In this document: in pieces, positions 1,697-38,196 of the stretch
How the letters are laid out: each line of letters starts with the position of its first letter
Position numbering within the stretch: the first letter of the stretch is position 1
UHGV virus genome: UHGV-0094207
Length of the DNA stretch: 41,135 bases
Origin: a virus
Strand: one strand, 5' to 3'
Notes under the pieces: model-generated
Seen by the model: the letters and a program-made list of their open reading frames with translations, nothing else
The model's database searches: none
Told to the model about the DNA's origin: nothing
Position numbers and translations under genes: made by a program

Positions 1697-2269
1697 TTAA
1701 AGCTCGCTGCTGGTGGTCGGAATCAATTTCTGCCAGATCGCGGACACGTATTTTGCTTGATGTCGCGCATCGGACAGTGCGTTATGTGCAACCCCATCGA
1801 ATGGCATATCTCGCTTTGGATCGAAACCCACCACTCTGCCTAATGTGACGATGGTTCTGACGTCGTGATCGTTCCAAAATTGCCACGGGCAAACCTGGCC
1901 GGCGCGCTCATATGCGCCGCGCAATATAACGTTGTCGAAAGTAGCTCCATTGCCCCAAACTTTTAAATATTTTGGGTTATCAGAATGCCGATTAATGAAA
2001 TGGCTCAGTTCAGATAGGGCAGATGATATCGGCATCGCATCATCAACACAGATTGCTGAGCGTGCTTCTGAGCTTTGTCTTAACCACCACAGAATAGTGT
2101 CACCATCCGGCACCGCTCCCTGCTCCATAGCGCTTTCAAGGTTAACGGCGGTGTAAAACTCCTGACCCAGTTCACCGCTTTGCGGATCGAAAAACACGGC
2201 ACCAATGGAGACGATAGGGGCATTCGGTTTTTTGCCCATGGATTCGAGGTCGATCATTAAATTGTTCAC
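1697..2269 (-). CDS. DEDDh-type 3'-5' exonuclease (DnaQ-like)
   Basis: 190 aa. 'MIDLESMG' (Exo I D-x-E motif) and 'HNALSDARH' (Exo III H-x4-D motif). Confidence 0.65.
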   Translation of the reverse strand: MNNLMIDLESMGKKPNAPIVSIGAVFFDPQSGELGQEFYTAVNLESAMEQGAVPDGDTILWWLRQSSEARSAICVDDAMPISSALSELSHFINRHSDNPKYLKVWGNGATFDNVILRGAYERAGQVCPWQFWNDHDVRTIVTLGRVVGFDPKRDMPFDGVAHNALSDARHQAKYVSAIWQKLIPTTSSEL

Positions 2270-2270
2270 G

Positions 2271-2606
2271 TTAAATATTCTCCTGTTTTGGTGCTGCTTT
2301 AATCATTGCTGCCCAGCACAACTCAGCCCGGCGCGCTGCCTGTCGGCATCCACTCAATGCTTCGTATTCCTCCCACTCTTTTTCATCGCTGAAGTGTGGA
2401 TCTGGAACCGATTCGAAGCCGTTAATAATCATGTCCTCGGTCGGAACGATAGGCACCAGCACATAGCCATTCGGAATCACAGGAGAGTTGCCAGCTTTGC
2501 GGCGCTCACTATCCAGGTCTGTTTGCAACTGGATTACCCACCGGGCAAGCTCTCCTTTTTCACCACTTTCGCGCCGCATATCCTCCAAACGGTATTTATC
2601 AATCAT
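2271..2606 (-). CDS. Hypothetical early protein
   Basis: Start taken at the internal Met 'MIDKYRLEDM', which abuts the stop of the upstream gene; the longer ORF-track form (to 2732) overlaps that gene by about 130 nt. Confidence 0.4.
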   Translation of the reverse strand: MIDKYRLEDMRRESGEKGELARWVIQLQTDLDSERRKAGNSPVIPNGYVLVPIVPTEDMIINGFESVPDPHFSDEKEWEEYEALSGCRQAARRAELCWAAMIKAAPKQENI

Positions 2607-3144
2607 TACTGTTATCCTCGCAGCAGTAGTGCCGCCCCTCTGGGTCAGTAGATACATGCCCGCAGATATCGCATTCAATTCCCGGAAGCACTGATTCTGA
2701 CTGCTCTTTGATATGCAGTCGCGGTACACCATCTTTCGGCTCAGGCCATTCGCGCTGCTTGTTCATTGCCAGCTTTTCTACCATCGCCAGGGTAATCTGC
2801 TCATCAGTGATACCTGCACGACGTTGCGCATCCCATAACAGGAATTGGATGTCAGCCCATTCGCTAAGGTCGCCTGGATCCGCAGCAGCCTCGATCGCTT
2901 CTTTGGAAAGGTGCTTCAGCGAACCAACTGGACCGACATCGCCGAAAGTAGCCTGTGACCATACTGCATGCTCACGGCGTACCAGTTCGCGGACAATCAC
3001 TCCAGCAATCACCTTCACAGCATCAGCCATTGCGTAGCCGAGATTGCCGCCGTCGCTTTGTGCTGCTGCTTTGCTGAGTATTTCGCGTATCTGGTGCAGG
3101 CGATCGAGTGATACAGGACCGTGCGCCGGGTGGTTAGTTGTCAT
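2599..3144 (-). CDS. Hypothetical protein, possibly MazG/DUF550-like nucleotide pyrophosphohydrolase
   Basis: 181 aa; family assignment is from recollection of the DUF550 family only and is not verified. Confidence 0.35.
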   Translation of the reverse strand: MTTNHPAHGPVSLDRLHQIREILSKAAAQSDGGNLGYAMADAVKVIAGVIVRELVRREHAVWSQATFGDVGPVGSLKHLSKEAIEAAADPGDLSEWADIQFLLWDAQRRAGITDEQITLAMVEKLAMNKQREWPEPKDGVPRLHIKEQSESVLPGIECDICGHVSTDPEGRHYCCEDNSND

Positions 3145-3434
3145 GGTGTGCTCCAGTTATCTTCAATCGCCACGCCAAGTCGGTGTAGCCAGTCGGCCAG
3201 CTTCAGCATCGCTTCTCGTTCGCTTAATCTTTCTGGAAAGTCGGTAAGCTCGACCATCGGTTTAAACCGACCAAACGCATCGTTCTCAACAACAAGTTTT
3301 TGCTCAAGCGTGGTCTGCTTAACTTTGCTGTGATGCCGTAGCAGGTAAACTGACTTTGATTTTTTGGTTTCTGGGTCGTATTCGTAGGCAGTGAGTATCA
3401 TCTGGCTACCGCCGCGATTCGTTCCTCGCCACAT
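3141..3434 (-). CDS. Hypothetical early protein
   Basis: 97-aa ORF tightly packed in the minus-strand operon (4-nt overlap with the downstream gene). Confidence 0.35.
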   Translation of the reverse strand: MWRGTNRGGSQMILTAYEYDPETKKSKSVYLLRHHSKVKQTTLEQKLVVENDAFGRFKPMVELTDFPERLSEREAMLKLADWLHRLGVAIEDNWSTP

Positions 3435-3437
3435 ATC

Positions 3438-3896
3438 TCACTCCCCCTTCACGCCAATGCCAGCGGCGCGGTCAATGCGTTCAATTTCTGCCAGAATAAG
3501 AGCGCCAGCTTTTACCAGGTCGCGGCGTGCTCCTGATTGCTTCCACCAGTCAGGCGACCACGGCCAATGCGCTGGAGTGGAGAAACCTTGGTTGTGCGCA
3601 TGAATTGCGTAACAAGCCGCTGCATCTGCTAATTCGCTATTTTGATATGCGTTGTCATGTTCAGGAGTCCATCCTTCAACCGATTGTTGCCGCTGGCGTT
3701 CGGCTACCACATCCAGAATTGCGGGATTGAATGCGCGCGCCTCCAGTTCTGCTATGCGCTTCTCTGCGGCATCCAGTGCGCCAGTAATCACCTCAAACTC
3801 ATCCAAGCGAATGATTGGCGCGTAAACATCACCAGAGCCGCGCTTCAGTCTGATATCTGAAATAATCGCCTGAGCCTGCTTGTTGAGTGCTGTCAT
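3438..3896 (-). CDS. Hypothetical early protein
   Basis: 152-aa ORF in the operon; 4-nt overlap with the upstream gene. Confidence 0.4.
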   Translation of the reverse strand: MTALNKQAQAIISDIRLKRGSGDVYAPIIRLDEFEVITGALDAAEKRIAELEARAFNPAILDVVAERQRQQSVEGWTPEHDNAYQNSELADAAACYAIHAHNQGFSTPAHWPWSPDWWKQSGARRDLVKAGALILAEIERIDRAAGIGVKGE

Positions 3897-4468
3897 TGGG
3901 CTGCCTCCTGGCGAAGAATTTCAGCAAAGACTTTCAACTCGTAGATATCCCTGCGAATAGAATCCCGAACTGCACCAATAGCAAAAGTGTCAGGGTGCAT
4001 GCCGTCTAATTGCTGCTGTTTAACCTCAATCATGCGCTCCACACCCTGAGCCTGCACTTCAGCCTGGAAAGCTTGATATGCTGGAATCTGCAACACAGCC
4101 AGTGAGCGAATCATCTTCTGAACTTCTGACGGGCACTGTTCGTAATGGTCGTCGGTGATGAATACCGCCTCGTTGTGAATTTTGTCCACAGCGCTTAATT
4201 CCGCCGCCAGCTTCCTACACTTGCTCTCGGCGTTAGCGAGCTGTACTGCCATGTCTGTGAGCTTCAGTTCAAGATTGTGAATAGTCGCGTCTGCTGCCCG
4301 GAACTCGCGCTGGGATTCCGTTAAATTTGAGCATGCGTTCTGAATTGAGTAGGCAAAAATGGCAGTATCACGATCATCTGATTCTTCAGCTTTAACCTGC
4401 AACTGAACCGCCAGGCTGAAGAGATCAGCAATTTGATTTTCTGTCATACGGTTATTGATAGTTTGCAT
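3893..4468 (-). CDS. Hypothetical coiled-coil protein
   Basis: Start chosen at 'MQTINN' (AGGT about 9 nt upstream); the longest ORF-track form (to 4549) overlaps the ParB-like gene by about 100 nt. Confidence 0.4.
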   Translation of the reverse strand: MQTINNRMTENQIADLFSLAVQLQVKAEESDDRDTAIFAYSIQNACSNLTESQREFRAADATIHNLELKLTDMAVQLANAESKCRKLAAELSAVDKIHNEAVFITDDHYEQCPSEVQKMIRSLAVLQIPAYQAFQAEVQAQGVERMIEVKQQQLDGMHPDTFAIGAVRDSIRRDIYELKVFAEILRQEAAQ

Positions 4469-5492
4469 TGGTATGTACCTGCTGAAGTTTGTGTTGTTTA
4501 ACGAAGTGGGCCACTGCTTTTGACTGGCTGGCGATAATTTTTCTGTCACCTAGGTCGAGCGTGACGTTCTTACCGCGATAAATTATTGCCGAGCCGATTT
4601 CCTTACCGTCCAGCTTCACATACAGCAATTTCCCGATAATCTCTGTCGTAGGGATTGGCTGTGAAAGGCGATAGGTTTCGCGAGCTTCAGCAATGGTTTT
4701 ATGTTCGTCGATTATCGACAGGGCTTCAGCCAGTGCAGTGCCTTGCAAAGTGAACACGCCTTCATCGCTGATTGTCGCCATGGCCATCAGTTCGACGAAG
4801 CGGCGAGCACTTTTAATGTTGAGTTCAGGAGCGATAGAACTGCGCGTAACCTTTGTTTTCCCCTGGGCGGCGGCTACGGCTTTATCGTGCTGGAGAACTT
4901 CACCAGCCTGTTCACCAAACTCGCGAACGCGGTCAACAGCAACATCAACAGACACGGCACCAGATTTAACTTCCTGCTGAACGTCATAATTAGCGGTACT
5001 CAGAGTGAGCAACTTCTCAACGGTCGCTACAGACTTATTGACCAGCTTTGCAATCTCGCTGGTGGTCTGATTGAAAGCGTTATGAAGCTCCTGAATAACA
5101 GCAGCCTGTTCAATATCGGAAAGGGGGAGTTGGTTATTACTGGTCATGATGCGAGCCAGACGCTGCACATCGTTACCGTTAAACGGCATGATATGAATAC
5201 GGTCTACTGGCTTACCAGCTTCAGCACAACGCGCATAGCAACGGCGACGGCGGTGGCCTTCAACAACCCACACCCCACCTTCATCACGTGCGATAACCTC
5301 CAGCGGAGGAACGGTGCCACCGTTCATCAGATAGTTAAACAGGTCATCATCTGCCTGGCGAGTGCGTTCGTCGTCTTCACGCTTGTTGAAACCTTCACGC
5401 ACGTAGATATGTTCAAGGCTGATAAACATCCCGGTATCGGTGCGCTTGATGGTCCCATCACGTGACATTTGTTTGAATGAGTTAGCGGCCAT
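4452..5492 (-). CDS. ParB N-terminal-domain (ParB/Srx-like nuclease) protein with HTH
   Basis: 346 aa. 'VVEGHRRRR' arginine-rich ParB-type motif followed by an HTH-like segment 'LPLSDIEQAAVIQELHNAFNQTTSEIAKLVNKSVATVEKLL'; no ParA partner is present. Confidence 0.6.
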   Translation of the reverse strand: MAANSFKQMSRDGTIKRTDTGMFISLEHIYVREGFNKREDDERTRQADDDLFNYLMNGGTVPPLEVIARDEGGVWVVEGHRRRRCYARCAEAGKPVDRIHIMPFNGNDVQRLARIMTSNNQLPLSDIEQAAVIQELHNAFNQTTSEIAKLVNKSVATVEKLLTLSTANYDVQQEVKSGAVSVDVAVDRVREFGEQAGEVLQHDKAVAAAQGKTKVTRSSIAPELNIKSARRFVELMAMATISDEGVFTLQGTALAEALSIIDEHKTIAEARETYRLSQPIPTTEIIGKLLYVKLDGKEIGSAIIYRGKNVTLDLGDRKIIASQSKAVAHFVKQHKLQQVHTNANYQ

Positions 5493-6007
5493 TACGCAGT
5501 ACCTTCACGAAGTTGGTTAGCGAATAACAGAGCCTGATTACCAGCGTAAACAATGCTTTCTTCTTGCTCTTCTTTCCCTATGGTAATAGTGACATTTGCG
5601 TACTTTTCCACGCCAGTGGCTTGGATATCGCGAATAACTTGATCAGTTACTGGAGTTAACTCGCGTAATTCTCTCTGCGCCTCCAACATGTGCATATTGG
5701 TCGGCGATTTGGTATGACGTTCAACGATGCGGTCGCACTCTTTGGCCCAACAATTAACATCGTCGCGTAAAACGGTGTTCTCTATGGCCAGTGCTTTACG
5801 CTGTTCCATTGACTCGCACAGCGCGACACCCTGAACATCGTAGCGGTTCGCCAGTTCATTCATCAGCCACTGGGAAGCAGGTGGCAGGAGAGGGGCAGCT
5901 TTACGGGCTGCATCGATCAGTTGTTCTCTGGTCATACGTGGTTGTAACTCAGTGACGTTCTGTGTGGTCGTCATGGTTAGTTTCTCCGTGTTATATGCGC
6001 CCTGCAC
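5492..6007 (-). CDS. Hypothetical early protein
   Basis: 171-aa ORF in the operon; start uncertain (internal 'MTTTQN' is an alternative). Confidence 0.4.
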   Translation of the reverse strand: MQGAYNTEKLTMTTTQNVTELQPRMTREQLIDAARKAAPLLPPASQWLMNELANRYDVQGVALCESMEQRKALAIENTVLRDDVNCWAKECDRIVERHTKSPTNMHMLEAQRELRELTPVTDQVIRDIQATGVEKYANVTITIGKEEQEESIVYAGNQALLFANQLREGTA

Positions 6008-6033
6008 GGCGCTGAATTCTTTGGCCTTGATAC

Positions 6034-6291
6034 TTAAAAGAGGCCACCTTGGTCTTTAGGTTGGACACGTTTTCTTTTTGTGACTTCGGACTTTGAAACC
6101 TGCTTATCTGCCCAGGCTTTTGCGTGCCTCATCACATCGTCAAAAATCGCGCCTTTTTTACTGGCTTGTGACATACGCTTATATAAATCAAGTGCTTGCC
6201 ATGCCCCCCCCCCCTGAGCCACTGAAGAGGAAAAACCTTGTTTAATAAGGATTTCCCTTACGTTCTTCTCAATAAATTCGAGGTGGTTCAT
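6034..6291 (-). CDS. Hypothetical protein; first gene of the early-left operon; contains a G11 homopolymer
   Basis: Start placed at 'MNHLEF' because a GGAGG sits 5 nt upstream; the ORF track extends it to 6345. A run of 11 C on the plus strand (6204-6214) encodes 'QGGGA'. Confidence 0.45.
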   Translation of the reverse strand: MNHLEFIEKNVREILIKQGFSSSVAQGGGAWQALDLYKRMSQASKKGAIFDDVMRHAKAWADKQVSKSEVTKRKRVQPKDQGGLF

Positions 6292-6521
6292 TAGTCCTCC
6301 AGTGGAAAAATCCGCTGAATTTTGGTTGCACGAATCCCTCGCCAAAAGGCGAATAAAAGTTTGGGTTTCGTTTCAGTAAATGCCCCATGAAGAGGCACTT
6401 AGTGAAACGGGCGACTGCAATCGCCGGTTAGTTTCTCCACTCAATTGAAAGCGCGTTCCGCTGGTTTTGGATTTAACGAACTGGCACTTAATGACAAGTT
6501 ACAGAACGCGCTTTCAGTTGA

Positions 6522-6569
6522 GTAAAAAGGGCGGTACCAGGGACTTCAAAGGTTGGTACTGGTACCGCC
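6522..6569 (-). terminator. Candidate rho-independent terminator downstream of the tRNA
   Basis: Inverted repeat ggcggtaccag / ctggtaccgcc (11-bp stem, 18-nt loop) followed on the minus strand by CUUUUUAC. Confidence 0.5.
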
Positions 6570-6621
6570 AAGACTCCACACAGCTTTCTTACTTCCTGGT
6601 ACCACGCTGGCTACGTGATTC

Positions 6622-6699
<78 letters not shown>

Positions 6700-7540
6700 A
6701 CTGGAAGCGCACTCCACCTGTTTCACACCTGTCACCCATAACTGGTAAGTAAAGGAGTGCGCTTTCATGTTGTGTTCGCGGGGTCTACTTCCCTCCTGTC
6801 ACGGTTCTTTCCCCGCGTCATCATGTGTTCATTCGGTACATGAAACCCATTTGTCAGGATTCCACCGGCTCCCATCAGTTTTTAAAGACACTCAGATATC
6901 GTCTGGTCTGTGCCGTCTCTTCCGGCTGTCATCCGGGTTGAACTCGCCCTGAACGAGATTGAAGGGTTATAGCCCCTTACGGCATTCACGCCCTCTCACG
7001 TGTGTCGCGTATGCCACGCCAGCGCTAACGAGTTTTAACGACCTTTGCCGTTTGCATCATCTTGTCGCCGCTGTTATCGGTGCGGAACCGCCACTGTCCA
7101 GGACATTTAAAAGGACCGTCTCCAAGTGGTAACTCTTCCAGTCCCGGTAAGCACTCTGCGAAATACTTACCGTGACCGGCTGTTATTCCCTGAAAAAGGC
7201 TGGCGGTTACCGGACAAACGGGAAAACATCGGGCCGCCAGAACAGGGAGTTACTTGTTATTGCTTTGGCCTGCTTTTAACCACATCAGGCGCGGTGGTAG
7301 GTATCTTCGGGCGGGGTGCTAAGGGGGTGATTAGCCCTTGCCCTTAACACTCCTGCTGGTTTTGGTATTCCTGGCTTGGGTATCGCCACCAGCTATAGGA
7401 ATTTGACTACGAGTTGGGGTTAATCAGACCGCGTCTCTGTTACCCCTCCCGAAGACACCTGTCAGCGAATCATCCGGTTATTCATACGCCACCGGCGGCT
7501 ACTTCGTGGGCGTCCTGCCTGTTCGCTGCTGATGAATGGA

Positions 7541-7569
7541 ATCTAACTTAACTTAGCTTTTAGATCAAG
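7541..7569 (-). promoter_or_regulatory. Candidate pL promoter downstream of cI
   Basis: On the minus strand: TTGATC, 17-nt spacer, TAGATT; the spacer contains a CTTAG motif like those in the oR region. Confidence 0.35.
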
Positions 7570-7622
7570 AAAAAACACCAAACTATTCTTAGCTTGATGT
7601 TAAGAGGAAGGTTAGAGGTAGG

Positions 7623-8249
7623 TTAAAGCTCGTACTGAACGCCTTTGACAACTCCAATGATCAGGCAATTACCGTTTATTGAAATGTTTGGATAGCGTGG
7701 ATTTAAGGGAACCAAGAACTTTTGAGGCCCATCGATGACGAGTTTTTTTACAGTAGCCTCGTTTGTCCCATCAAGTCTGGCTACGACTATCTTTCCATTA
7801 AGTGGCTCTGCATCAGGGTCCACTATGACTGTTGCCCCTTCAGGGATTGTCGGAAGACCATTAGGGTTTGTCATCGAATCACCTTTGACCTCCAATGCAA
7901 ATGAGCTATCACCTATCCTGAGTGATGTTTCTACCCACTTATCTACTTCACTGAAAACTTCTGCTGCTTTACATTCTGTAAACTGTCCAGCCTGAACCCA
8001 AGATATCACCGGAATCCTTCGCATCTTGGTTATCAGATTTCCTTCGAATTCAGTGCCATAGAGTATGTAATCAATTGATGTGTTGAAATACTTTGCAAGT
8101 TTCGAAAGTGACTCACCGCCTGGCACATTAATGTCTTTTTCCCAATACCCAACCGCCACATCGCTAACACCACAGAACTTACCCAGTTCTTTCTGCGAAG
8201 TTTTGGTTACGCGCCTGAGAGCTTTGATGCGCTGACCGACAGTTTCCAT
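7623..8249 (-). CDS. cI: CI-like prophage repressor (HTH plus S24 LexA-like peptidase)
   Basis: 208 aa. N-terminal HTH 'QKELGKFCGVSDVAVGYWEK'; Ala-Gly cleavage site in 'WVQAGQF'; catalytic 'KGDSM' and 'VKKL'. Confidence 0.85.
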   Translation of the reverse strand: METVGQRIKALRRVTKTSQKELGKFCGVSDVAVGYWEKDINVPGGESLSKLAKYFNTSIDYILYGTEFEGNLITKMRRIPVISWVQAGQFTECKAAEVFSEVDKWVETSLRIGDSSFALEVKGDSMTNPNGLPTIPEGATVIVDPDAEPLNGKIVVARLDGTNEATVKKLVIDGPQKFLVPLNPRYPNISINGNCLIIGVVKGVQYEL

Positions 8250-8351: not shown

Positions 8352-8579
8352 ATGACAACCGATGACATTGAAAACTACTTCGGCAGTACTGAGAAAGTTG
8401 CCGAATTTTTTGGAATCACAAGCGAGGCCGTTTACCAGTGGCGTAATAGAACTGGTCGCCTAATCCCGAAAGGACGTGCAGCAGAAGCAGCCTATCGGAC
8501 TGGGGGAAAATTGGTTTTCCATCCCGACCTTTACGAAAAGCGTAGCGAAGCTTCAGTAAAACTCAAACCACAGGAATAA
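8352..8579 (+). CDS. cro: Cro-like HTH regulator
   Basis: 75 aa, divergent from cI across the operator region; HTH-like 'EKVAEFFGITSEAVYQWR'. Confidence 0.65.
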   Translation: MTTDDIENYFGSTEKVAEFFGITSEAVYQWRNRTGRLIPKGRAAEAAYRTGGKLVFHPDLYEKRSEASVKLKPQE

Positions 8580-8589
8580 GGGGGGAACC

Positions 8590-9141
8590 GTGGGTAACGA
8601 ACCTATTTGGAAAGTCGAACGTCAGCCTTCCTGGCTGGTGGTAGCGATTAAAAAAACCATTACCGATCTGCCAGGTGGATATGCTGAGGCGGCGGAATGG
8701 TTGGGAGTGACAGAGAACGCATTGTTTAACCGCCTTCGTGTTGACGGTGACCAGATCTTCCCGCTGGGCTGGGCAATGGTTTTACAACGTGCTGGTGGTT
8801 CAACTCATATCGCTGATGCCGTTGCGCGCCATTCTCAGGGCGTATTTGTACCGCTGGCAGATGTTGATGATCTGGATAACGCCGATATCAACCAGCGCTT
8901 GATGGAATCAATCGAATGGATAGGCCGTCATTCTAATTTTGTACGTAAAGCCACGGCTGATGGGGTGATTGACGCAGAGGAGCGCGCTCAGATTGAGGAA
9001 AACAGCTATCAGGTTATCGCGAAGTTCCAGGAGCACGTAGCGCTTCTTTATAGAGTTTTTTGTGTCGCTGAAAAGAGTGACGCCCGCGAGTGTGCAGCTC
9101 CGGGCGCCATGGCGAACAACTCTTCGAGTATGGAGAAATAA
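8590..9141 (+). CDS. CII-like phage regulatory protein
   Basis: 183 aa directly after cro; 'DLPGGYAEAAEWLGVTENALFNRL' HTH-like segment; family assignment from recollection only. Confidence 0.45.
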   Translation: MGNEPIWKVERQPSWLVVAIKKTITDLPGGYAEAAEWLGVTENALFNRLRVDGDQIFPLGWAMVLQRAGGSTHIADAVARHSQGVFVPLADVDDLDNADINQRLMESIEWIGRHSNFVRKATADGVIDAEERAQIEENSYQVIAKFQEHVALLYRVFCVAEKSDARECAAPGAMANNSSSMEK

Positions 9142-9313
9142 TCCGCATGAGCAGTTTAACGGCTTTTGACCGTCTACCGCAACTAAGGATGATCCCGGTT
9201 TCGGGTACTCCGTTGTTTCGGTATGAACGCAGATTATCAAACCGCTTGGTTCCGTGTAACCACAGTAGGGCGGTTTCAATTGTGGGGGTCTACAACCGGA
9301 GGGCAAAACGCCT

Positions 9314-9499
9314 GTGCGCGAACTTAACCGAAGGTTCAAAGACAACCGCGGAGTGCCAGTCCGTGTTATTCGCTGGGAGCCAGAAACACAGCGCGTTATC
9401 TATCTGCGTGATGGCTACCCGCACGAATGCTTCAGCCCACTTGAGCATTTCAGGCAAAAGTTCAGGGAGATAACGGACGACCATGAGCCAGATATTTGA
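9314..9499 (+). CDS. Hypothetical small basic protein
   Basis: 61 aa with GTG start; ends 17 nt into the O-like gene; weak support. Confidence 0.25.
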   Translation: MRELNRRFKDNRGVPVRVIRWEPETQRVIYLRDGYPHECFSPLEHFRQKFREITDDHEPDI

Positions 9500-10505
9500 A
9501 ATCGTTCAATCACTGTCGGGGCAAAGGAATTGCATCACCATTCCGGTCCCGTACCTAGATTATTTCTCCGGCGATCAGCAGGCGCATGCTTTGGGTGCTG
9601 TGCTAAACCAGCTTGTGTTCTGGTCCGGTAAATCAGACCTGAATGATGGCTGGTTTTACAAAGAACACAGTGAGCTGGCGGCAGAGATTCGCGGCGTGAG
9701 TGAAGATCAGGTGCAGCGTCTGGTAAACAAGATTTGTACCCGATGGTTACCAGGGGTTGTTGAGAAGGCCCAGCGACAGGTAAACGGCACTAAAAAGACG
9801 CATTACCGTATCAATGGCGAAGCTCTAATCAACGTTTTATTCCCGGTAACGCTGGATTCCGCAGAATCGCGGAACGGGAAACGTGAAGTCGCGGAACCCA
9901 TTCCGCAGAATCACGGAACCGAAAACGTAGAACCGCGGAACCCTAACCGCGAAGTCGCGGAACCTATTCTCTATACAGATCATTACTCAGATCACCACAA
10001 ACAGATCAGTAACCCTTCTTGTCCGGAAGCTTCGCAACCGGACGCTGAAAGTTCATCTCCTGTTGAACAGTTTCTTGCTAAACATCCTGAAGCAGTGACC
10101 TGGAATGTACCGAAGCGGCAGTGGGGCAGTCAGGATGATTTGACTTGTGCGGAATACCTATGGGTAAAAATCATCGCGATGTACGAGCAGGCCGCTGAAA
10201 GTGACGGTGAAGTAGTCCGACCTAAAGAGCCTAATTGGGCATCCTGGGCAAACGAAGTGCGCCTGATGGTGGCGCAGGACGGCAGAACGCATAAGCAAAT
10301 TTGCGCACTCTTCAAACGAGCTAATCAGGATTCCTTCTGGTGCAAAAACGTCCTCAGCCCTTCAAAACTTCGCGAAAAGTGGGACGAATTAAGTCTGAAG
10401 CTTTCCGTGTCCATGAAACAGCCTACAGGTGATTCACCAGTAGCACGGGCCAGTTATCAGACCGTTGATTACTCACTGCCAGAAAATTCGGGGTTCCGCT
10501 CATGA
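9483..10505 (+). CDS. Replication initiator (lambda O-like) containing the iteron origin
   Basis: 340 aa. N-terminal 'NQLVFWSGKSDLNDGWFYKEHSELAAEI' resembles the O-protein N-domain; a central repetitive linker 'REVAEPIPQNHGTENVEPRNPNREVAEPI' is encoded by the iterons. Confidence 0.65.
   Translation: MSQIFEIVQSLSGQRNCITIPVPYLDYFSGDQQAHALGAVLNQLVFWSGKSDLNDGWFYKEHSELAAEIRGVSEDQVQRLVNKICTRWLPGVVEKAQRQVNGTKKTHYRINGEALINVLFPVTLDSAESRNGKREVAEPIPQNHGTENVEPRNPNREVAEPILYTDHYSDHHKQISNPSCPEASQPDAESSSPVEQFLAKHPEAVTWNVPKRQWGSQDDLTCAEYLWVKIIAMYEQAAESDGEVVRPKEPNWASWANEVRLMVAQDGRTHKQICALFKRANQDSFWCKNVLSPSKLREKWDELSLKLSVSMKQPTGDSPVARASYQTVDYSLPENSGFRS
9856..9970. repeat. Candidate replication-origin iterons
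   Basis: Two 44-bp tandem copies (attccgcagaatc[g/a]cggaac...cgcggaaccc) plus a partial third; six CGCGGAAC-like cores in total. Confidence 0.6.
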
Positions 10506-11380
10506 TGCCAAATAAATATTGCCAGGCGCTGGCAGAACTGCGCAGTAAACCAGCTCACGAATTGAAAGAAGTTGGAGATCAGTGGAGGACACCGGATCTG
10601 CTTTTCTGGGGGATCAACGCGTTATTTGGCCCATTAGTCCTGGACTTGTTCGCTGACGACGACAACGCGAAGTGCCCGGCATGGTACACCGCCGAAGATA
10701 ACGCGCTGACACAGAACTGGTCTGAACGTCTGGATGAACTGGGCGGCGCGGCGTTTGCCAACCCTCCATATAGCCGCTCGCAGTATCACGACAAGCAGGC
10801 GATCACGGGTATGACACACATCATGAATCACACCATGGACATGCGTGAAAGAGGTGGTCGCTATATTTACCTGGTGAAGTCTGCCACAAGTGAAACATGG
10901 TGGCCGGAAGATGCCGATCACATCATGTTTATTCGTGGTCGTATTGGGTTCGATCTGCCTGTGTGGTTTGTACCTGCTGACGAAAAACAGAAACCCACCA
11001 GCGCGTTTTTTGCCGGTGCCATAGCTGTATTCGACAAGTCATGGCGTGGTGAGCGGTTCAGCTATATCAACCGCACAGAACTGGAGGCAAAAGGTCGGGC
11101 ATTTATGGCGCTGGCTCAATTCGCTGTTGGTAAAGAGCAAACCATTGCAGTGCGGACAGCCCAGGAACCTGTAATGCCATTAGAAACTGAGTCACGAATC
11201 TGGCCTCTAGAGGTTGGTCTGGTGTTTAACCAGGTGGAAGGCGTTGACGTATTGAGCGAGGCTCAGCAGAACAAGCTGAAAGCCAACATCAATCAACTCT
11301 GGCTGGAACGAACGGCCACCAGCGAAATCATTACTGTTGCTTCTGAACTTGTTCGCAATATGCGGGGAGAGATCGCGTGA
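10502..11380 (+). CDS. Phage Dam-type DNA N6-adenine methyltransferase
   Basis: 292 aa. 'DQWRTPDLLF' and the catalytic 'FANPPYS' (NPPY) motif. Confidence 0.7.
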   Translation: MMPNKYCQALAELRSKPAHELKEVGDQWRTPDLLFWGINALFGPLVLDLFADDDNAKCPAWYTAEDNALTQNWSERLDELGGAAFANPPYSRSQYHDKQAITGMTHIMNHTMDMRERGGRYIYLVKSATSETWWPEDADHIMFIRGRIGFDLPVWFVPADEKQKPTSAFFAGAIAVFDKSWRGERFSYINRTELEAKGRAFMALAQFAVGKEQTIAVRTAQEPVMPLETESRIWPLEVGLVFNQVEGVDVLSEAQQNKLKANINQLWLERTATSEIITVASELVRNMRGEIA

Positions 11381-11763
11381 AATTGGTCCTGCCTTTTCCT
11401 CCGAGCGTGAACTCTTACTGGCGCGCCCCTAACAAGGGGCCGCTGGCCGGTCGTCACCTCATTAGCGCTGATGGCCGCAAATACCAGAGCGCTGCCTGCA
11501 TGGCGATCATTGAACAATTACGACGTCTCCCGAAGCCATCGACTGAACTGGCAGCGGTAGAAATCACTCTGTACCCGCCGGATGCGCGCCGCCGGGATAT
11601 CGATAATTACAACAAAGCCCTGTTTGACGCGCTGACGCATGCGGGTGTCTGGGAAGACGACAGCCAGATTAAGCGCATGCTGGTGGAATGGGGACCCGTA
11701 GTGCCGAAAGGGCGGGTAGAGATAACGATCAGCAGATATGAACCGGCGGGTGCAGCCGCCTGA
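11377..11763 (+). CDS. rusA: RusA-family Holliday-junction resolvase
   Basis: 128 aa. 'PFPPSVNSYWR' and 'RRRDIDNYNKALFDALTHAGVWEDDSQI' match the RusA pattern. Confidence 0.85.
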   Translation: MKLVLPFPPSVNSYWRAPNKGPLAGRHLISADGRKYQSAACMAIIEQLRRLPKPSTELAAVEITLYPPDARRRDIDNYNKALFDALTHAGVWEDDSQIKRMLVEWGPVVPKGRVEITISRYEPAGAAA

Positions 11764-11776
11764 TATGGAGAAAAGT

Positions 11777-12463
11777 ATGAGCCAGTTAATCGTGAATGGT
11801 GTAGTAACAATGTCCAGCCGTGATATTGCGGATCTGGTTCAGAGTAAACACAGTGACGTGAAACGCTCGGCTGAGCGTCTTGTTGCTGCGGGAATTTTAA
11901 CCGCGCCATTGGCGCAGTTCGATTTTGAGCATAACGGTAATGTGTACCAGGAGTATCGTTTTAACAAACGCGACTCTCTGGTGATTGTTGCCAGATTATC
12001 ACCTGAATTTACCGCCGCGGTCGTCGATCGCTGGCAGGAACTGGAAGAAGGACAGAGTGTCAGTGTTCCGCGCTCATTACCGGAAGCGCTTCGCCTGGCT
12101 GCTGATTTAGCCGAGCAGAAAGAGCAACTGACCATCCAACTGGCAGCCGCGGCGCCAAAAGTGGAGTTTGTTGATCGTTATTGCTCTGCAAAAGGCTCCA
12201 TGTCATTCCGGCAGGTAGCCAAATTGCTTAACGCAAAAGAAACTGAGTTTCGTCTGTTCCTTATTGAACGCAATATCCTGTATCGCCTCGGCGGCACACT
12301 TACCCCCATGGCGCAGCACATTTCCGCGGGAAGATTTGAAGTTAAGACGGGAACATCGAGCACATCCAATCACGCATTCAGCCAGACGCGTTTCACTGCC
12401 AGGGGAGTACGCTGGATTGGTGGTTTGTGGGCTGAACATATTGCAGGGGGGCAGGCGGCGTGA
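11777..12463 (+). CDS. Rha-family phage regulatory protein, possible antirepressor C-terminal domain
   Basis: Start at 'MSQLIVNG' with GGAG 6 nt upstream; N-terminal 'SSRDIADLVQSKHSDVKRSAERL' is Rha-like. Confidence 0.55.
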   Translation: MSQLIVNGVVTMSSRDIADLVQSKHSDVKRSAERLVAAGILTAPLAQFDFEHNGNVYQEYRFNKRDSLVIVARLSPEFTAAVVDRWQELEEGQSVSVPRSLPEALRLAADLAEQKEQLTIQLAAAAPKVEFVDRYCSAKGSMSFRQVAKLLNAKETEFRLFLIERNILYRLGGTLTPMAQHISAGRFEVKTGTSSTSNHAFSQTRFTARGVRWIGGLWAEHIAGGQAA

Positions 12464-13455
12464 GGGCTTTGTTAACTCCTGAAGTCGCCCATCGCATGGG
12501 GATTGTGTTGTTTCGTCCCGGCGCGGAACTGATGCACCTCTTTATGCGCGGTCGCGTTCTGCTCGAGCCTGAACCAGAAGAAATGGCGTCATTCAGTACA
12601 GGAGCTGTTCCCGCCGCCATTCAGCCGCTGGCTGATGATCCGGTAATGCGGCAGGTCTTCGGGAATGAGCGGGTTATTCAGCGTGCCGGCGGGCTTCCTT
12701 CCCTTGAGCAATGGTTGAGTAATCGATTTGAATGCCAGTGGCCACATTCAACGTGGCACGACAAGAACTTCACAACAATGCGGCACCCACCAGGAAGTAT
12801 TCGCCTGTGCTGGCATTGCGATCACACTTTGTCGGGGCAGCATACCGAACAGCTTGCAGGTATAGCGGCAGGAAACCTGGTATCCTGGATTCTGGAAGTC
12901 ATTCTGCGTGATTCTGGTTTTCCCGAGTCGCATATCCTGACGCTTCCGGAACTGTGCTGGTGGATGGTCAGAAACGACCTGGCTGATGTTATGCCGGAAA
13001 GCGTTGCGCACAAGGGGCTACGCCTTCCGGATGAGAAGATCCGCTCGGTCATGAGGGAAAGCGACATTGTGCCTTCCGCTTCTGCAACCAGCCTCGTGCA
13101 GGAGAAGGCGAAGAAGATCCTCACGCTCTCTGTTGATCCGGAATCTCCAGAATCTTTCATGCTCAGGCCAAAGCGACGCCGCTGGATAAATGAGACGTAC
13201 ACCCGCTGGGTTAAAACACAACCCTGTGAGTGTTGCCGACGGCCAGCAGATGATCCGCACCATATCGTAGGGCATGGTATGGGTGGTACAGCAACAAAAG
13301 CCCATGACCTCTTCGTGATCCCTCTGTGCAGAGAGTGCCACGACGAGTTACACGCCGATGTACCGGCATTCGAGCAGAAGCATGGTACGCAGCTTGAGCT
13401 GCTACTGCGTTTTATGGATCGGGCGCTGGCGATCGGCGTAATTGCGAAAGCTTAA
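12460..13455 (+). CDS. DUF968/YdfU-like protein with C-terminal Cys/His cluster
   Basis: 331 aa. C-terminal 'CECCRRPADDPHHIVGHGMGG...PLCRECHDELH' metal-binding-like cluster; sits before Q as in other lambdoid prophages. Confidence 0.5.
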   Translation: MRALLTPEVAHRMGIVLFRPGAELMHLFMRGRVLLEPEPEEMASFSTGAVPAAIQPLADDPVMRQVFGNERVIQRAGGLPSLEQWLSNRFECQWPHSTWHDKNFTTMRHPPGSIRLCWHCDHTLSGQHTEQLAGIAAGNLVSWILEVILRDSGFPESHILTLPELCWWMVRNDLADVMPESVAHKGLRLPDEKIRSVMRESDIVPSASATSLVQEKAKKILTLSVDPESPESFMLRPKRRRWINETYTRWVKTQPCECCRRPADDPHHIVGHGMGGTATKAHDLFVIPLCRECHDELHADVPAFEQKHGTQLELLLRFMDRALAIGVIAKA

Positions 13456-14166
13456 GTGTATGGAGCGCAAAGAAGCATGAATCAACAAGACCTGAATTTT
13501 GTCAGAATAGAATTGCGCCGCGCGCTACCTGACCTCTCTGGGGGAACAAAAGGGCAGCTTGAGGCTTTCAGTGAACACCCACCAGCAGATAAAAATGCCA
13601 CCCCGCGCCGTGGAATTCATCTCGTCGAACTCGAAGGAGATAAGGGGCCACGCTTTGTTAACTCGCTTTCCGCGCCACTGTATGTGCTGGAAACACGCAG
13701 CCGCCGTAGGCCAATGCCGCCGATAAAAGATGCGGAATTTGAGTCAGCGCCGTGGCGTAGGGCAGTGTCCGCGCTTAGTGGATACCAGCAGGCCTGGTTG
13801 CGGTACTGTTACGGTTTTGACCTTAGCTATAAGCACCAGGTGATGATGTGTGAATACGTCTGGAAAACTTATCAGAAATGCCTGGGTGATAATTCCCTTC
13901 AGGAGCGCGTAGTAAAGAAACTGATTGGCCTGGTATGGCTGGCAGGGCAGGAAATTGCCGCAACCAGAAATAATGAAACCTATAAAGACTATGCTGGTGC
14001 AGCGTTGGCCCGCATGGTTAGCGTTGACCGTTCGACATGGTTGCGTGTCTATTCAGGGCACTGGGCTGGGTTAAAGGCCGCTTTTACCCAGCTTGATGAA
14101 TCTGCGCTGGCCATGGCTCTTGAATACTATGAGGAAGAAGACGCCCTCAAAGTGGCAGAAATGTGA
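13456..14166 (+). CDS. Late-gene antiterminator Q
   Basis: 236 aa in the canonical position before the lysis cassette; GTG start in the ORF track, ATG 'MNQQD' at 13477 is an alternative. Confidence 0.65.
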   Translation: MYGAQRSMNQQDLNFVRIELRRALPDLSGGTKGQLEAFSEHPPADKNATPRRGIHLVELEGDKGPRFVNSLSAPLYVLETRSRRRPMPPIKDAEFESAPWRRAVSALSGYQQAWLRYCYGFDLSYKHQVMMCEYVWKTYQKCLGDNSLQERVVKKLIGLVWLAGQEIAATRNNETYKDYAGAALARMVSVDRSTWLRVYSGHWAGLKAAFTQLDESALAMALEYYEEEDALKVAEM

Positions 14167-14260
14167 AGTAAATTTCACTATCTCCTTCAAACGCGCTTGC
14201 AAAATGCAACAAAATAAGCCATATTTGAAGCATATTTGATATGTTGCCAAAGTTCTATAA

Positions 14261-14287
14261 ACCCGCCTGTGAGCGGGTTTTTCTTTA
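14261..14287 (+). terminator. Rho-independent terminator (tR'-like)
   Basis: acccgcctgtgagcgggt hairpin followed by tttttcttt. Confidence 0.7.
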
Positions 14288-14367
14288 ACCTCTTTTGGCA
14301 CTCAATCTACGTCAAAATCAATATGTTATAATTCCGCTGGTCAAAACAAGCCACCGGAGGCAGTGCT

Positions 14368-14607
14368 ATGAAAATCACATCTGTACATTTCGAAATTCTG
14401 CGTCGAGCAGATGCACTTGGTCCACGTGAAACAATTCAATCTTCTGATCTTCCTCACATTCCAGCGAAAACGGTAGATTTTGCCATTTCAGATCTTGCTG
14501 ATTTGGGATTGGTAAATGCTGTTCAAAGTAAGTCTGATGAAGGTGGGTGGATAGCGATTGAAATCACGTCAAAGGGTGATCGCTATTTAAATGAACTAGA
14601 GGCTTAA
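14368..14607 (+). CDS. Hypothetical small protein (moron between Q and lysis genes)
   Basis: 79 aa; GGAGG before the ATG; visibly AT-richer than neighbours; bracketed by two terminators. Confidence 0.45.
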   Translation: MKITSVHFEILRRADALGPRETIQSSDLPHIPAKTVDFAISDLADLGLVNAVQSKSDEGGWIAIEITSKGDRYLNELEA

Positions 14608-14642
14608 TTCACTCTCTAGTAAAACGCGGGACATAATCTATA

Positions 14643-14671
14643 GGCTGCCATTTGGCGGCCTTTTCTATTTC
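14643..14671 (+). terminator. Rho-independent terminator
   Basis: ggctgcc-attt-ggcggcc hairpin (one G-U pair) followed by ttttctatttc. Confidence 0.5.
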
Positions 14672-14772
14672 AGGCTCTGGGAATCACCCTTACTTTCACC
14701 TTTGCATAAGAGCCCAGAAGCCTGATCCTCCTTTCATCACACAGCGCCATCCGAACTATCGGAGGTGAGGCT

Positions 14773-15051
14773 ATGACCAGAATGAGCACCATTTACAGCA
14801 GACTTTCATATGGAACAGGAACCACGCTGACCGGCTGCGGTGTATCAGCGAAGGCATACGCCGAAACAGCTAAAACAGCAAAAGAGGTGTCCTGGATGTT
14901 GGCCGACAGAATTGCAGGGTTAAGCCTGAGCGACTGGGCAATTATTGTCGGTATCGCATGCACCGTTATTACCTGTGCAGTGAACTGGTATTTCCGCTGG
15001 AAAGAACGGGAGGATCGTCGCAATGGCTATGCCACAAAAGCTGAAGAATAA
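14773..15051 (+). CDS. Holin with dual-start motif
   Basis: 92 aa. Starts 'MTRM' (two Met separated by a basic residue); hydrophobic 'WAIIVGIACTVITCAVNWYF' segment then a charged tail 'RWKEREDRR'. Confidence 0.65.
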   Translation: MTRMSTIYSRLSYGTGTTLTGCGVSAKAYAETAKTAKEVSWMLADRIAGLSLSDWAIIVGIACTVITCAVNWYFRWKEREDRRNGYATKAEE

Positions 15052-15571
15052 ACTGAGCGCAGCTGTCGTTGGGTTAATTCTTGCCGGGGCTTCCGCACCC
15101 GTAATTCTCGATCAGTTTCTGGATGAGAAAGAGGGTAACAGCACAACAGCGTACAAGGACGGCTCTGGTATATGGACCATTTGTCGTGGCGCAACGATGG
15201 TTGATGGTAAGCCAGTAGTTCAGGGCATGAAGCTGCCTGCTGAGAAATGCGCTCAGGTAAATGCTATTGAACGCGATAAAGCGCTGGCGTGGGTTGACCG
15301 AAATATCAAAGTACCACTGACGGAACCACAGAAAGCGGGTATCGCTTCTTTCTGCCCATATAACATCGGCCCCGGAAAATGTTTCCCGTCTACGTTCTAT
15401 AAGCGAATTAATGCTGGCGACCGTAAAGGAGCCTGTGAAGCGATCCGCTGGTGGATAAAAGACGGTGGCCGCGATTGTCGCCTGACCAAAGGGCAGAAGA
15501 ATGGTTGTTATGGGCAGGTAGAAAGGCGAGACCAGGAAAGCGCGCTGGCTTGCTGGGGGATAGACCAGTGA
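15023..15571 (+). CDS. SAR endolysin (T4-lysozyme-like)
   Basis: 182 aa. N-terminal signal-anchor-like 'LSAAVVGLILAGASAPVIL'; catalytic spacing 'EGNSTTAYKDGSGIWT'. Confidence 0.8.
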   Translation: MAMPQKLKNKLSAAVVGLILAGASAPVILDQFLDEKEGNSTTAYKDGSGIWTICRGATMVDGKPVVQGMKLPAEKCAQVNAIERDKALAWVDRNIKVPLTEPQKAGIASFCPYNIGPGKCFPSTFYKRINAGDRKGACEAIRWWIKDGGRDCRLTKGQKNGCYGQVERRDQESALACWGIDQ

Positions 15572-16092
15572 ACAGAAGCCTCGTTATTGTTGGGATGGCA
15601 GCAATCATCTTCATCGCGGTGCTCTGTGTACTACTGGCGCGCAGCAATGCAGCGTTGACCACGTCAGAGAGTGACAACCGGATACTGCGCAACGATAACG
15701 CACTGCAGGCAACGGTGATAACTACCCAGGCGTTCAACTTCAACCGGTTTAACCAGGTAGCGGAGAACGCCAGTCGCCTGAACTCGCTGATTGATGCCGG
15801 AACCGAAAAGACCGTTATCGAATACCGGGAGATTCTTCGCCGTGAAAAAACCTGTGATCTGCCTGTTCCTGCTAATGTCGCTGGTGGGCTGCTCAACTAC
15901 GCGAACCGTTTACGTGCCAGCGCAATGCACCCCGATACCGGGGACACTGACGCAGCCGATGATAGTACCGCTGCCGCCAGCTCAATAACCTATTGTCAGG
16001 CCGTTCTCTGGATTCAATCATTACTTGCAGAGATAGAGAAGGGTAACAACCAACTGGCAGGGATTAGGGATATTGAGGAAGGGAGACATTAG
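15568..16092 (+). CDS. Rz-like i-spanin
   Basis: GTG start overlapping the endolysin stop; N-terminal TM 'LVIVGMAAIIFIAVLCVLL' then a periplasmic coiled-coil region. Confidence 0.65.
   Translation: MNRSLVIVGMAAIIFIAVLCVLLARSNAALTTSESDNRILRNDNALQATVITTQAFNFNRFNQVAENASRLNSLIDAGTEKTVIEYREILRREKTCDLPVPANVAGGLLNYANRLRASAMHPDTGDTDAADDSTAAASSITYCQAVLWIQSLLAEIEKGNNQLAGIRDIEEGRH
15842..15988 (+). CDS. Rz1-like o-spanin lipoprotein embedded in Rz (+1 frame)
   Basis: 'KKPVICLFLLMSLVGC' signal peptide with lipobox; Pro-rich mature part; entirely inside the Rz gene. The ORF-track start is 15791. Confidence 0.55.
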   Translation: MKKPVICLFLLMSLVGCSTTRTVYVPAQCTPIPGTLTQPMIVPLPPAQ

Positions 16093-16128
16093 AAATAGGG
16101 CCACTTAAAGGTAGCCCAAACGATTCGA

Positions 16129-16386
16129 TTAAGATTTAGAAAGTAGGGCTACAACTCTTTTATGTAACTCTTCTGCATAACCTTCATTTACTGGGTTTTC
16201 AAACTCCACAGGCGGCGCTGATTTAAAAGCTTTATCGTAGCTATCGCCAAGCATACCAGGCTGTTTGGCAAGGGAGTTCCAAGCTGTGGATATCGTGGTA
16301 ATAGCAATTCTTGCTGCATGCTGATCTAAAAGTAGCTCTTCAATAGTTTTTTCGAGTTCATCAATGCGTTTCTGCAGATCTGTCAT
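16129..16386 (-). CDS. Hypothetical small coiled-coil protein, antisense to the late operon
   Basis: 85 aa on the opposite strand between Rz and the glycosyltransferase gene; visibly AT-rich. Confidence 0.45.
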   Translation of the reverse strand: MTDLQKRIDELEKTIEELLLDQHAARIAITTISTAWNSLAKQPGMLGDSYDKAFKSAPPVEFENPVNEGYAEELHKRVVALLSKS

Positions 16387-16494
16387 GAAATTACCTCTAA
16401 AGGGTTGTGTAAATGAGCTGCGATTATATCATTTTGGTGTCAGCAAAAGTGATGTCCAGATAGGAGTCCTGAACCATTTTATTTTGGAGAAATT

Positions 16495-36848: not shown

Positions 36849-37158
36849 TTTTGGATTTGCCTCATGGGACACTAACGGCGTCCCGAATAACTATGGCATT
36901 AAACCTGTAACCGTGGTGGGTATCATCGATCTTGCTTTAGGTCAGAAAACGGGAAGCTACCAGTTCAGTCTGGAGCCTGGTTTAAAGGTTGGTTTTGCGG
37001 TTGGTACTCTGGAGGATAAAGGGACAATAAGTTATACAGACAAAAGAAGCATTATTGCATCTGGAAACACCATAACAATACAGCCTTCAGGTAGTGATGG
37101 GATTAATGATTACCCGGCAGTCAAAGTGCAGTTAATCGTTTTTGCGGAGACTGCGTAG
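36841..37158 (+). CDS. Hypothetical protein downstream of J
   Basis: 105 aa; 8-nt overlap with J; lower GC than J. Confidence 0.4.
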   Translation: MSDFGFASWDTNGVPNNYGIKPVTVVGIIDLALGQKTGSYQFSLEPGLKVGFAVGTLEDKGTISYTDKRSIIASGNTITIQPSGSDGINDYPAVKVQLIVFAETA

Positions 37159-38178: not shown

Positions 38179-38196
38179 TGCCTTACCAAAAAACAA

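Follow-up and report, generated by a model that had tools for sequence, protein, structure and literature searches.

A probable delayed-early left operon in a Chi-rich lambdoid prophage of Citrobacter freundii and its orphan ParB-like protein

A 2025 survey of 314 enterobacterial lambdoid phages found that 22% of them carry no Rec module (PMC12315714). Nearly all of these Rec-less phages are rich in top-strand Chi sites, which accumulate toward the right end, and the Rec-less, Chi-rich phages apparently depend on host RecBCD (PMC12315714). The type phage, LLS, carries 23 Chi sites (20 on the top strand), and its growth is poor when RecB or RecC is missing; the same class, 'no Rec module / high Chi', also covers phiNP, ST64B-like phages and mEp390 (PMC12315714, which cites earlier work by Bobay et al. 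2013). The survey reports no gene that is universal to Rec-less phages. Very distant ParB relatives and DnaQ-type nucleases, neither of which the survey counts as Rec genes, occur in some early-left operons and usually adjoin cI or int (PMC12315714). Here, we describe the early-left operon of the virus genome UHGV-0094207 (positions 1697-6345), in which a ParB-like protein and an exonuclease are found in such an arrangement. The whole stretch that we analyzed, 41,135 nucleotides (nt) in length, is referred to as the window.

We consider it likely that 1697-6345 represents the delayed-early left operon of a lambdoid prophage of the LLS type from Citrobacter freundii, and that it is composed of a mosaic of accessory genes plus one unit formed by ParB and its upstream neighbor p171. 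The window follows the lambdoid gene order, i.e., int-xis, early-left operon, cI/cro, O, nin, Q, lysis and late genes. The rightward genes after cro encode CII-like, Dam methylase, RusA, antirepressor, DUF968, Q, holin and lysozyme proteins, and the late genes are of the HK97 type (terS at 19032, then terL, portal, ClpP protease and capsid). Nine minus-strand open reading frames (ORFs) pack 1697-6345 without gaps from xis to the cI side. Most of them abut or overlap by 1-17 nt (p171/ParB 1 nt, ParB/p191 17 nt, p191/p152 4 nt, p97/DUF550 4 nt and DUF550/p111 8 nt), which is the layout expected of one operon read leftward from the cI side toward xis and int. The features of this region, with protein lengths in amino acids (aa), are as follows.

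[quoted passage not shown]
1422-1658, xis, encoding a DUF1233 excisionase
1697-2269, minus strand, DEDDh 3'-5' exonuclease of the Rv2179c-like / T4 DexA / EcD family, 190 aa (PF16473)
2271-2606, minus strand, p111, 111 aa (ATG at 2606, ORF open to 2732)
2599-3144, minus strand, DUF550 dATP/dGTP pyrophosphohydrolase of the all-alpha MazG superfamily, 181 aa (PF04447)
3141-3434, minus strand, p97, 97 aa (phrog_1258, function unknown, E=1.8e-47)
3438-3896, minus strand, p152, Ead/Ea22-like, 152 aa (homologues named ead/Ea22-like and carrying PF13935)
3893-4468, minus strand, p191, Ea22-like coiled-coil protein, 191 aa (ATG at 4468, ORF open to 4549; phrog_614, phrog_492 and phrog_368)
4452-5492, minus strand, orphan ParB-like protein, 346 aa (HTH_ParB, phrog_1033, AlphaFold model)
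5492-6007, minus strand, p171, all-helical coiled-coil protein of 171 aa, the conserved upstream partner of ParB
6034-6291, minus strand, p85, 85 aa (GGAGG before the ATG at 6291, ORF open to 6345; phrog_4439)
6346-6621, minus strand, conserved non-coding leader of 276 nt with a terminator-like hairpin, a 20-bp stem and two further hairpins
6622-6698, minus strand, tRNA-Arg with anticodon TCT (ARAGORN; Rfam RF00005, 68.8 bits)
7623-8249, minus strand, LexA-type cI repressor gene, facing the P22-Cro-like gene
8352-8579, plus strand, P22-Cro-like gene

A preliminary description had placed the operon at 1697-6007. The minus-strand ORFs given there were all borne out, but the operon reaches 6345 and includes one extra gene likely starting at 6291. 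Two starts also had to be moved: the gene after ParB most likely begins at 4468 and not at 4549, and the gene after DUF550 at 2606 and not at 2732. In relatives, the start assigned by PGAP to the p191 equivalent lies 17 nt inside parB. The exonuclease, ParB and DUF550 protein sequences are identical to chromosomal ones of C. freundii, and all three are already annotated in public records.

As described earlier, the operon lacks a classical recombinase. We searched all nine contiguous operon proteins against PHROGs, NCBIfam and Pfam, with a Pfam limit of E<=10 for those of unknown function, and obtained zero matches to recombinase, recombination exonuclease, SSB or Gam families; the profile searches thus found no canonical recombination protein among the unknowns either. 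As judged by profile or fold, no early-left protein matched Red-beta/RecT, Erf, Rad52-like Sak, Sak4, lambda Exo/RecE or Gam/Abc2. A regular-expression scan of all six frames of the window, which may miss a deviant Walker A, returned no ORF with this motif except for a chance match in the tape-measure gene, which argues against a recombinase of the Sak4/RecA type. The sole recombination-related gene found in the window encodes a resolvase.

11377-11763, plus strand, RusA Holliday-junction resolvase gene (PF05866, E=2.4e-16)

The window is rich in Chi. The octamer GCTGGTGG occurs 18 times, compared to 1.71+/-1.38 expected from dinucleotide shuffles, and none of 100 shuffles reached 18. Fourteen of the sites lie on the late-gene ('top') strand and four on the other, and Chi ties as the commonest octamer of the late-gene strand. 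The Chi density of the window is 1 per 2.29 kb. Nine of the 14 top-strand sites are clustered within ~10.4 kb upstream of terS, which would be the right end of the virion map if cos is located there. Two further top-strand sites fall into the early-left operon.

8634-18441, plus strand, cluster of nine top-strand Chi sites
1709-1716, plus strand, Chi site within the exonuclease gene
5058-5065, plus strand, Chi site within parB

The published Rec-less, Chi-rich lambdoid class thus explains the missing recombinase: its absence is real, but it is explained and already described, and the novelty implied by the preliminary description falls away with a class that makes up about a fifth of the surveyed phages and whose Chi enrichment accounts for it. 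Following the survey, the recombination that forms concatemers would be provided by host RecBCD and RecA acting at Chi sites (PMC12315714). The layout also matches the published pattern, with ParB near cI and the exonuclease adjoining xis. With LLS-type phages, the window shares the lambdoid gene order, the lack of SAP, Exo, SSB and anti-RecBCD genes, Chi as top or joint-top octamer with a late-strand bias and a higher density toward the right end, the lack of a visible N homologue, and a nin region with RusA plus DUF968. A stretch of the non-coding leader beside cI is 88% identical to LLS. The left-operon genes differ; those of LLS are yfbR/yfdQ/yfdP-like, whereas the window carries p171-ParB, Ea22-like genes, DUF550 and a DexA-like exonuclease. 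Further differences from LLS are the host, Citrobacter, and a somewhat lower Chi density (18 in 41 kb compared to 23 in 43 kb) with four sites off-strand.

To place the operon genes in context, we used a set of 82 loci, comprising 80 IMG/VR loci with close ParB relatives (86-99% identity) and two E. coli prophages. The p171 gene lies directly upstream of ParB in 77 of them, and the leader is present in 70, directly upstream of the genes of the p171-ParB unit. Homologues of the remaining proteins were found in 40 loci for p191 (with variable identity), 20 for DUF550, 12 for p103 (the full ORF at 6034-6345), 11 for p97, 8 for the exonuclease and none for p152. Overall, the genes between ParB and int form 112 clusters across related loci. 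The genes recur independently, which indicates that the operon is not one system but a mosaic made up of accessory genes, and this speaks against the earlier proposal of a coherent host-takeover or counter-defence set. Its independently exchangeable genes include those for three modular proteins of the Ead/Ea22-like type and for three small proteins of unknown function. The 'several unknowns' of the preliminary description are therefore only partly so: the three small proteins keep this status, whereas p152, p191 and p171 are Ead/Ea22-like. Joint inheritance is seen only for p171 and ParB, together with the leader.

The stop codon of p171 and the start codon of ParB overlap by 1 nt, and the pair is likely translationally coupled. 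p171 consists of a conserved core of ~110 residues with variable tails. Its AlphaFold (AF2) model shows long helices only, at a pLDDT of 73.5, a profile search against PDB sequences found no homologue, and p171 and p191 match shared Ea22-type coiled-coil PHROGs. We infer that p171 is a partner of the ParB clamp described below. In a distant ParB subfamily (80 loci, L083-L162; ~35-45% identity, GC content ~0.59), a LuxR/GerE-type helix-turn-helix (HTH) protein of ~148 aa lies directly downstream of ParB in 49 of 80 loci, replacing p171. In Pseudomonas phage phi2 (L191, 7798-9359), this downstream neighbor is annotated as a LuxR family regulator.

On the transcribed strand, the leader forms a GC-rich hairpin followed by a U-run immediately after tRNA-Arg(UCU), and a long-range stem of 20 bp pairs 6439-6458 with 6504-6523. 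RNAalifold on 29 leader sequences predicted 45 pairs, of which six show compensatory changes, i.e., few independent events. The inner stem of the terminator-like hairpin varies between clades, and one leader hairpin switches between GGCGA/TCGCC and GGCGG/CCGCC in 14 sequences. A simple promoter and terminator scan performed no better than on shuffles and missed the post-tRNA terminator owing to its long loop. As judged from these sequence features, the p171-ParB pair appears to sit behind an intrinsic terminator of the leftward early transcript. Such a terminator implies that the operon genes are expressed only after antitermination, and expression of p171-ParB would be restricted to this stage.

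We then turned to the ParB-like protein itself, which the preliminary description had called a ParB-fold protein with an HTH and no ParA. This holds: HTH_ParB (PF17762) was found with 29.1 bits against a cutoff of 22.6, phrog_1033 matched at E=1.4e-82, and a ParA was not found in the window, where p171 and an Ea22-like gene are the neighbors of ParB. The LG(K/R)GL motif for ParA binding was not found in the protein. It comprises an N-terminal ParB fold for binding nucleoside triphosphates (NTPs), the HTH and a variable alpha/beta domain at the C-terminus. With 1840 representative clusters at E<=1e-3, this is a large family, and in 64 diverse homologues residues 1-225 are conserved, while the C-terminus varies; this 64-sequence alignment proved too broad to seed the locus search, for which narrower alignments were used. 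N36, G79, R82 and G106 are invariant in the family. The GxxR of the Box II P-motif is kept as G79-H-R-R82, so the protein does not lack the motif whose loss had been considered earlier, and this stretch aligns with GERRxR of the ParB proteins from H. pylori, M. xanthus and B. subtilis.

An AF2 model built from the 64 homologues reached a pLDDT of 91.7. In a Foldseek search, its best PDB matches (E~1e-8) were M. xanthus ParB with CTPgammaS, KorB from the KorB-KorA complex (TMt 0.69) and Noc, followed by C. crescentus ParB (TMt 0.66, root mean square deviation 3.9) and T. thermophilus Spo0J. The HTH region aligns with the DNA-binding domains of KorB and ParB. KorB of RK2, Noc and chromosomal ParB are DNA sliding clamps gated by cytidine triphosphate (CTP), and the window protein shares with them the N-terminal fold and GxxR followed by a ParB-type HTH and, with KorB and Noc, the lack of a ParA partner. 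It differs in Boxes I to III (Q to N, GERR to GHRR and ENxxR to T-S) and in its C-terminal domain of alpha/beta type plus a long helix. As a small co-encoded partner, p171 loosely recalls KorA or TrbA, which lock KorB, but it bears no similarity to KorA. Prophages are already known to carry orphan ParBs in which Box III diverges, and a recent survey shows that such orphan folds on mobile elements may bind CTP, ATP or GTP with a specificity that is unpredictable from sequence (PMC12704722). The window protein resembles the proteins of that survey in being prophage-borne, outside a parAB operon and without LG(K/R)GL, with a divergent Box III and GxxR kept; this family, its coiled-coil partner and the position behind an early-left terminator are apparently not described there (PMC12704722).

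Based on the structural model, we infer that the ParB-like protein binds phage DNA at specific sites, as a clamp or regulator gated by nucleotide and comparable to KorB and Noc, and is neither a nuclease nor a partition protein. It would load on phage DNA with p171 as its partner.

Several points weigh against the picture drawn so far. For the phage class, the absence of a recombinase is derived from profile and fold searches, and the proteins of 111, 97 and 85 aa carry no fold information. The location of cos is deduced from the position of terS alone, and dependence on host RecBCD is carried over from the published class by analogy. For the ParB-like protein, TIGR00180 matched at E=1.8e-10 with 40.9 bits, which is under its cutoff of 58.45, and Pfam did not report PF02195 even at E<=10. 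The Box III motif ENxxR is absent and reads T117-S118-N-N-Q. The canonical residues for CTP hydrolysis are changed as well, with the Box I Q replaced by N36 (G-F-N36-K-R) and the Box II E by H80. Given these altered boxes, nucleotide binding and clamp behavior are predictions. A ParB binding site was not found in the window: perfect palindromes of >=12 bp numbered nine, compared to 5-14 in shuffles, and were not common to related loci. The inverted repeat formed by the 20-bp leader stem was the sole standout of the parS search, and a general repeat scan of the window gave only origin iterons and chance pairs.

Beyond a mosaic with one conserved unit, p171-ParB could be tied functionally to the Rec-less, Chi-dependent lifestyle, e.g., by organizing or shielding replicating DNA for the formation of concatemers through host RecBCD and RecA. 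All sampled temperate phages with an early-left ParB are Rec-less and Chi-rich (the window, mEp390, Serratia BZS1, Pseudomonas phi2 and MD8). In mEp390 and BZS1, GCTGGTGG is the commonest octamer, with 19 top and 0 bottom and with 14 top and 0 bottom sites, respectively, and neither has an annotated Rec module. In phi2, the commonest octamer is GCTGGCGC (34 top, 0 bottom), and MD8, a Rec-less Pseudomonas example (PMC12315714), has the ParB-like gp48. Across the 80 close loci (840 kb), GCTGGTGG occurs 352 times on the top and five times on the bottom strand, three times more often than any permutation, and the 76 gene clusters downstream of ParB in these 80 related loci include no Rec family. 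In the 80 distant loci, GCTGGCGC occurs 399 times opposite to the parB strand and 44 times on the same strand, ~3x above any non-overlapping octamer permutation. Many uncultured ParB phages thus appear to belong to the Chi-rich class, which had so far been described for just four Pseudomonas phages. The association spans Escherichia, Citrobacter and Serratia with GCTGGTGG and Pseudomonas with GCTGGCGC.

However, the ParB loci are phylogenetically related, so that the association, drawn from ParB-bearing phages only, may reflect simple co-inheritance. Moreover, a homologue with 33% identity is located early-right, between cII and O, in a Klebsiella phage that encodes Exo, Bet and GamL but has just five Chi sites. 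Another, with 42% identity, occurs in Xanthomonas phage FoX2, which encodes an exonuclease VIII and an SSB of its own and for which neither integrase nor repressor is annotated. The lack of any gene universal to Rec-less phages argues in the same direction. We therefore regard a role in organizing or shielding DNA for RecBCD as quite unlikely. A real functional connection of p171-ParB with the Rec-less class has a small chance in our estimate. The same small chance applies to p171, ParB and the leader being a distinct module of Rec-less, Chi-rich lambdoid phages of enterobacteria and pseudomonads that aids RecBCD-dependent replication or control of the early-left transcript. As an NTP-gated clamp on phage DNA, for example, p171-ParB may replace functions of the Rec module or of the N type. 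If the association survives a correction for phylogeny, it would point to a gene by which Rec-less phages may handle growth that depends on RecBCD. Taken as a whole, the region is a largely ordinary early-left operon, mosaic in composition, and its phage class is known. The missing recombinase itself matters little, as the class is published and the enzyme families have known biochemistry. The uncharacterised p171-ParB unit with its leader is the only part of the operon that might repay work.

The preliminary description had labeled the ParB-like protein a nuclease and linked it to host takeover or counter-defence. In this form, or as an ATP-using enzyme of the Srx/SerK type, the proposal draws on the His in place of Glu in Box II, where GHRR may resemble the GHHR and GCHR motifs of the divergent ParB/Srx branch, on the non-canonical Box III and on divergent orphan ParB folds, which can bind ATP or GTP (PMC12704722). 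Its structural neighbors, though, are the HTH-bearing clamps ParB, KorB and Noc, while Srx and SbnI gave marginal Foldseek matches only (E 0.05-0.14 over ~100 residues), and HTH_ParB scored above its cutoff. Pfam showed no fused HNH or other nuclease domain, and neither PADLOC nor anti-defence families matched the protein. 'Nuclease' is thus a legacy domain name without support here, and we find an enzymatic role in takeover or counter-defence unlikely.

Against the mosaic operon of a Rec-less phage, one could also hold that a non-canonical recombinase hides among p171, p191, p152, p97, p111 and p85, since six of the nine operon proteins have no assigned function and the survey concedes that unrecognised Rec proteins are possible (PMC12315714). 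This is very unlikely. The unknowns gave no Pfam match at E<=10, and PDB profile searches were empty for p171 and p152. p171, the only one of them conserved with the locus, consists of long helices and is hence unlike Rad52/Erf/RecT-type folds; the others are absent from most relatives. The Ea22-like type of p152, p191 and p171 is also found in Rec+ phages, and strong Chi enrichment is the signature of phages without a recombination system of their own. Least probable of all is that ParB acts as the partition protein of a plasmid-like prophage state, as its NCBI label 'chromosome partitioning protein ParB' and an idea raised by the authors on MD8 might suggest: integrase and excisionase are present and the element is chromosomal, ParA and a ParA-binding motif are lacking, and parB is positioned behind a terminator in a lytic early-left operon.

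Among the accessory genes of the mosaic operon, that for the DnaQ-like exonuclease reported before is indeed present. PF16473 matches over the full length of the protein (E=2e-74), phrog_255 is annotated 'exonuclease', and the DEDDh residues can be read in the sequence (D7, E9, D112, H162 and D167). The nearest solved structures (8KEL/8KEN, E~2e-10) are those of T4 DexA (PMC12153337). An E. coli homologue of DexA, EcD ('HREX'), degrades only DNA with 5-hydroxymethylcytosine (5hmC) and protects cells from T4, and such 'bacterial' DexA homologues are commonest in Escherichia and Citrobacter (PMC12153337). Using the published primers, we recovered an EcD-like gene that is probably EcD itself: its sequence differs from the 3' primer by one base and has Ala at position 78, as reported. 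The window exonuclease is 37% identical (E=3e-40) to this EcD-like prophage protein of 189 aa. It shares the Pfam family, the five catalytic residues and the Trp said to contact 5hmC (W132, FWN motif) with T4 DexA and EcD, and the tetramer-forming Asp90 of DexA is replaced by Ser, its absence being shared with EcD. It differs from the EcD-like protein in more than the low identity, as the equivalent of DexA D169, the acidic residue in contact with 5hmC, is not acidic in HMMER and BLAST alignments.

Judging by its sequence, the protein is probably a DNA exonuclease, which, encoded beside xis, would serve nucleotide scavenging or attack modified incoming phage DNA. The only published functional lead for the family is defence against 5hmC phages and not counter-defence (PMC12153337). 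The link to DexA and EcD raises the idea that a prophage exonuclease could exclude phages with modified DNA, which is a lead and not a result. The gene matching the EcD primers also occurs in six viral contigs (L165, L170, L180, L181, L183 and L186), so that this 'bacterial' defence gene looks prophage-borne. In L186 (6401-6991, minus strand), it lies in a leftward operon with an unannotated ORF of 370 aa on one side and, on the other, a divergent pair that resembles a repressor/cro switch by ORF layout only. A PADLOC scan of all nine operon proteins gave only a weak generic DEDDh match and a coiled-coil LmuB match, and thus no defence system was recognised.

The possible MazG-like protein turned out to be a DUF550 member of the MazG superfamily (PF04447, E=4.6e-40, 136.2 bits compared to a cutoff of 23), and its PDB match to MazZ, a MazG-like protein, is weak (7ODY, E=0.008). 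In Z-genome phages, this family converts dGTP and dATP to the deoxynucleoside monophosphate and pyrophosphate (PMC12884076), and the window protein would alter the purine deoxynucleoside triphosphate pools. It shares PF04447 and the all-alpha MazG-like fold family with MazZ and the DUF550 proteins of Z-genome phages, but differs in a Cys-rich tail added at the C-terminus. The annotated window genes include no recognisable PurZ or DatZ gene, which argues against a part in a Z-DNA pathway.

The remaining operon proteins yielded less. p111 and p97 had no Pfam match at E<=10, and the C-terminal part of p111 matches only PHROGs of unknown function (phrog_12449, phrog_5913 and phrog_60). The C-terminal domain of p152 is widespread, and profile searches found no PDB match for the protein. 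We also considered this domain as a second MazG-like domain and rejected it, as hhalign against DUF550 returned a probability of 0.45% and the PDB search was empty. The gene for p85 contains a C10 run at 6208-6217, G10 on the coding strand, that encodes GGG; such a homopolymer is slippage-prone, and a frameshift could switch the gene off.

Upstream of the leader, the early-left transcript includes the tRNA-Arg(UCU) gene, which follows the presumed PL promoter and precedes the first protein gene, an arrangement that is also annotated in E. coli prophage relatives. The 862 nt between this tRNA and cI (6699-7560) contain 9-16 stop codons per frame. The fold of the leftward transcript has a z of -3.99 (0 of 20 shuffles as stable) compared to -1.53 for the other strand, and pieces of the region are 79-95% identical in mEp390, Kp4865-1, phiNP and LLS. 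On 6300-7650, an Rfam search with permissive thresholds returned the tRNA and nothing else. As no N homologue is present, a put-like antiterminator or some other large RNA may be encoded in 6699-7560. A decayed sieB or a moron of the ECs1072 family, both found at this place in E. coli relatives, was considered and dropped after an empty tblastn search.

Elsewhere in the window, a unit of ~22 nt (ATTCCGCAGAATCGCGGAAC-like) is repeated in three or four tandem copies at 9856-9965, inside an ORF of 340 aa (9483-10505) for which Pfam gave no match. These repeats look like origin iterons located in the gene for an initiator of the O type. Genes for a helicase or a helicase loader were not seen in the window, which fits the 'O only' replication module described for LLS. 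Two ORFs of 485 and 196 aa (16495-18524), lying between the lysis genes and terS, contain three Chi sites, and the 485-aa ORF has a weak glycosyltransferase-2 match (E=6e-4). Phage mEp390 has ORFs of 485 and 196 aa at an equal map position (36724-39305), likened here by length alone. Finally, a gene for an SOS-response-associated peptidase (SRAP, YedK-like) lies at the far right end of the window (40417-41085, minus strand) and is either a prophage-end moron or a flanking host gene.

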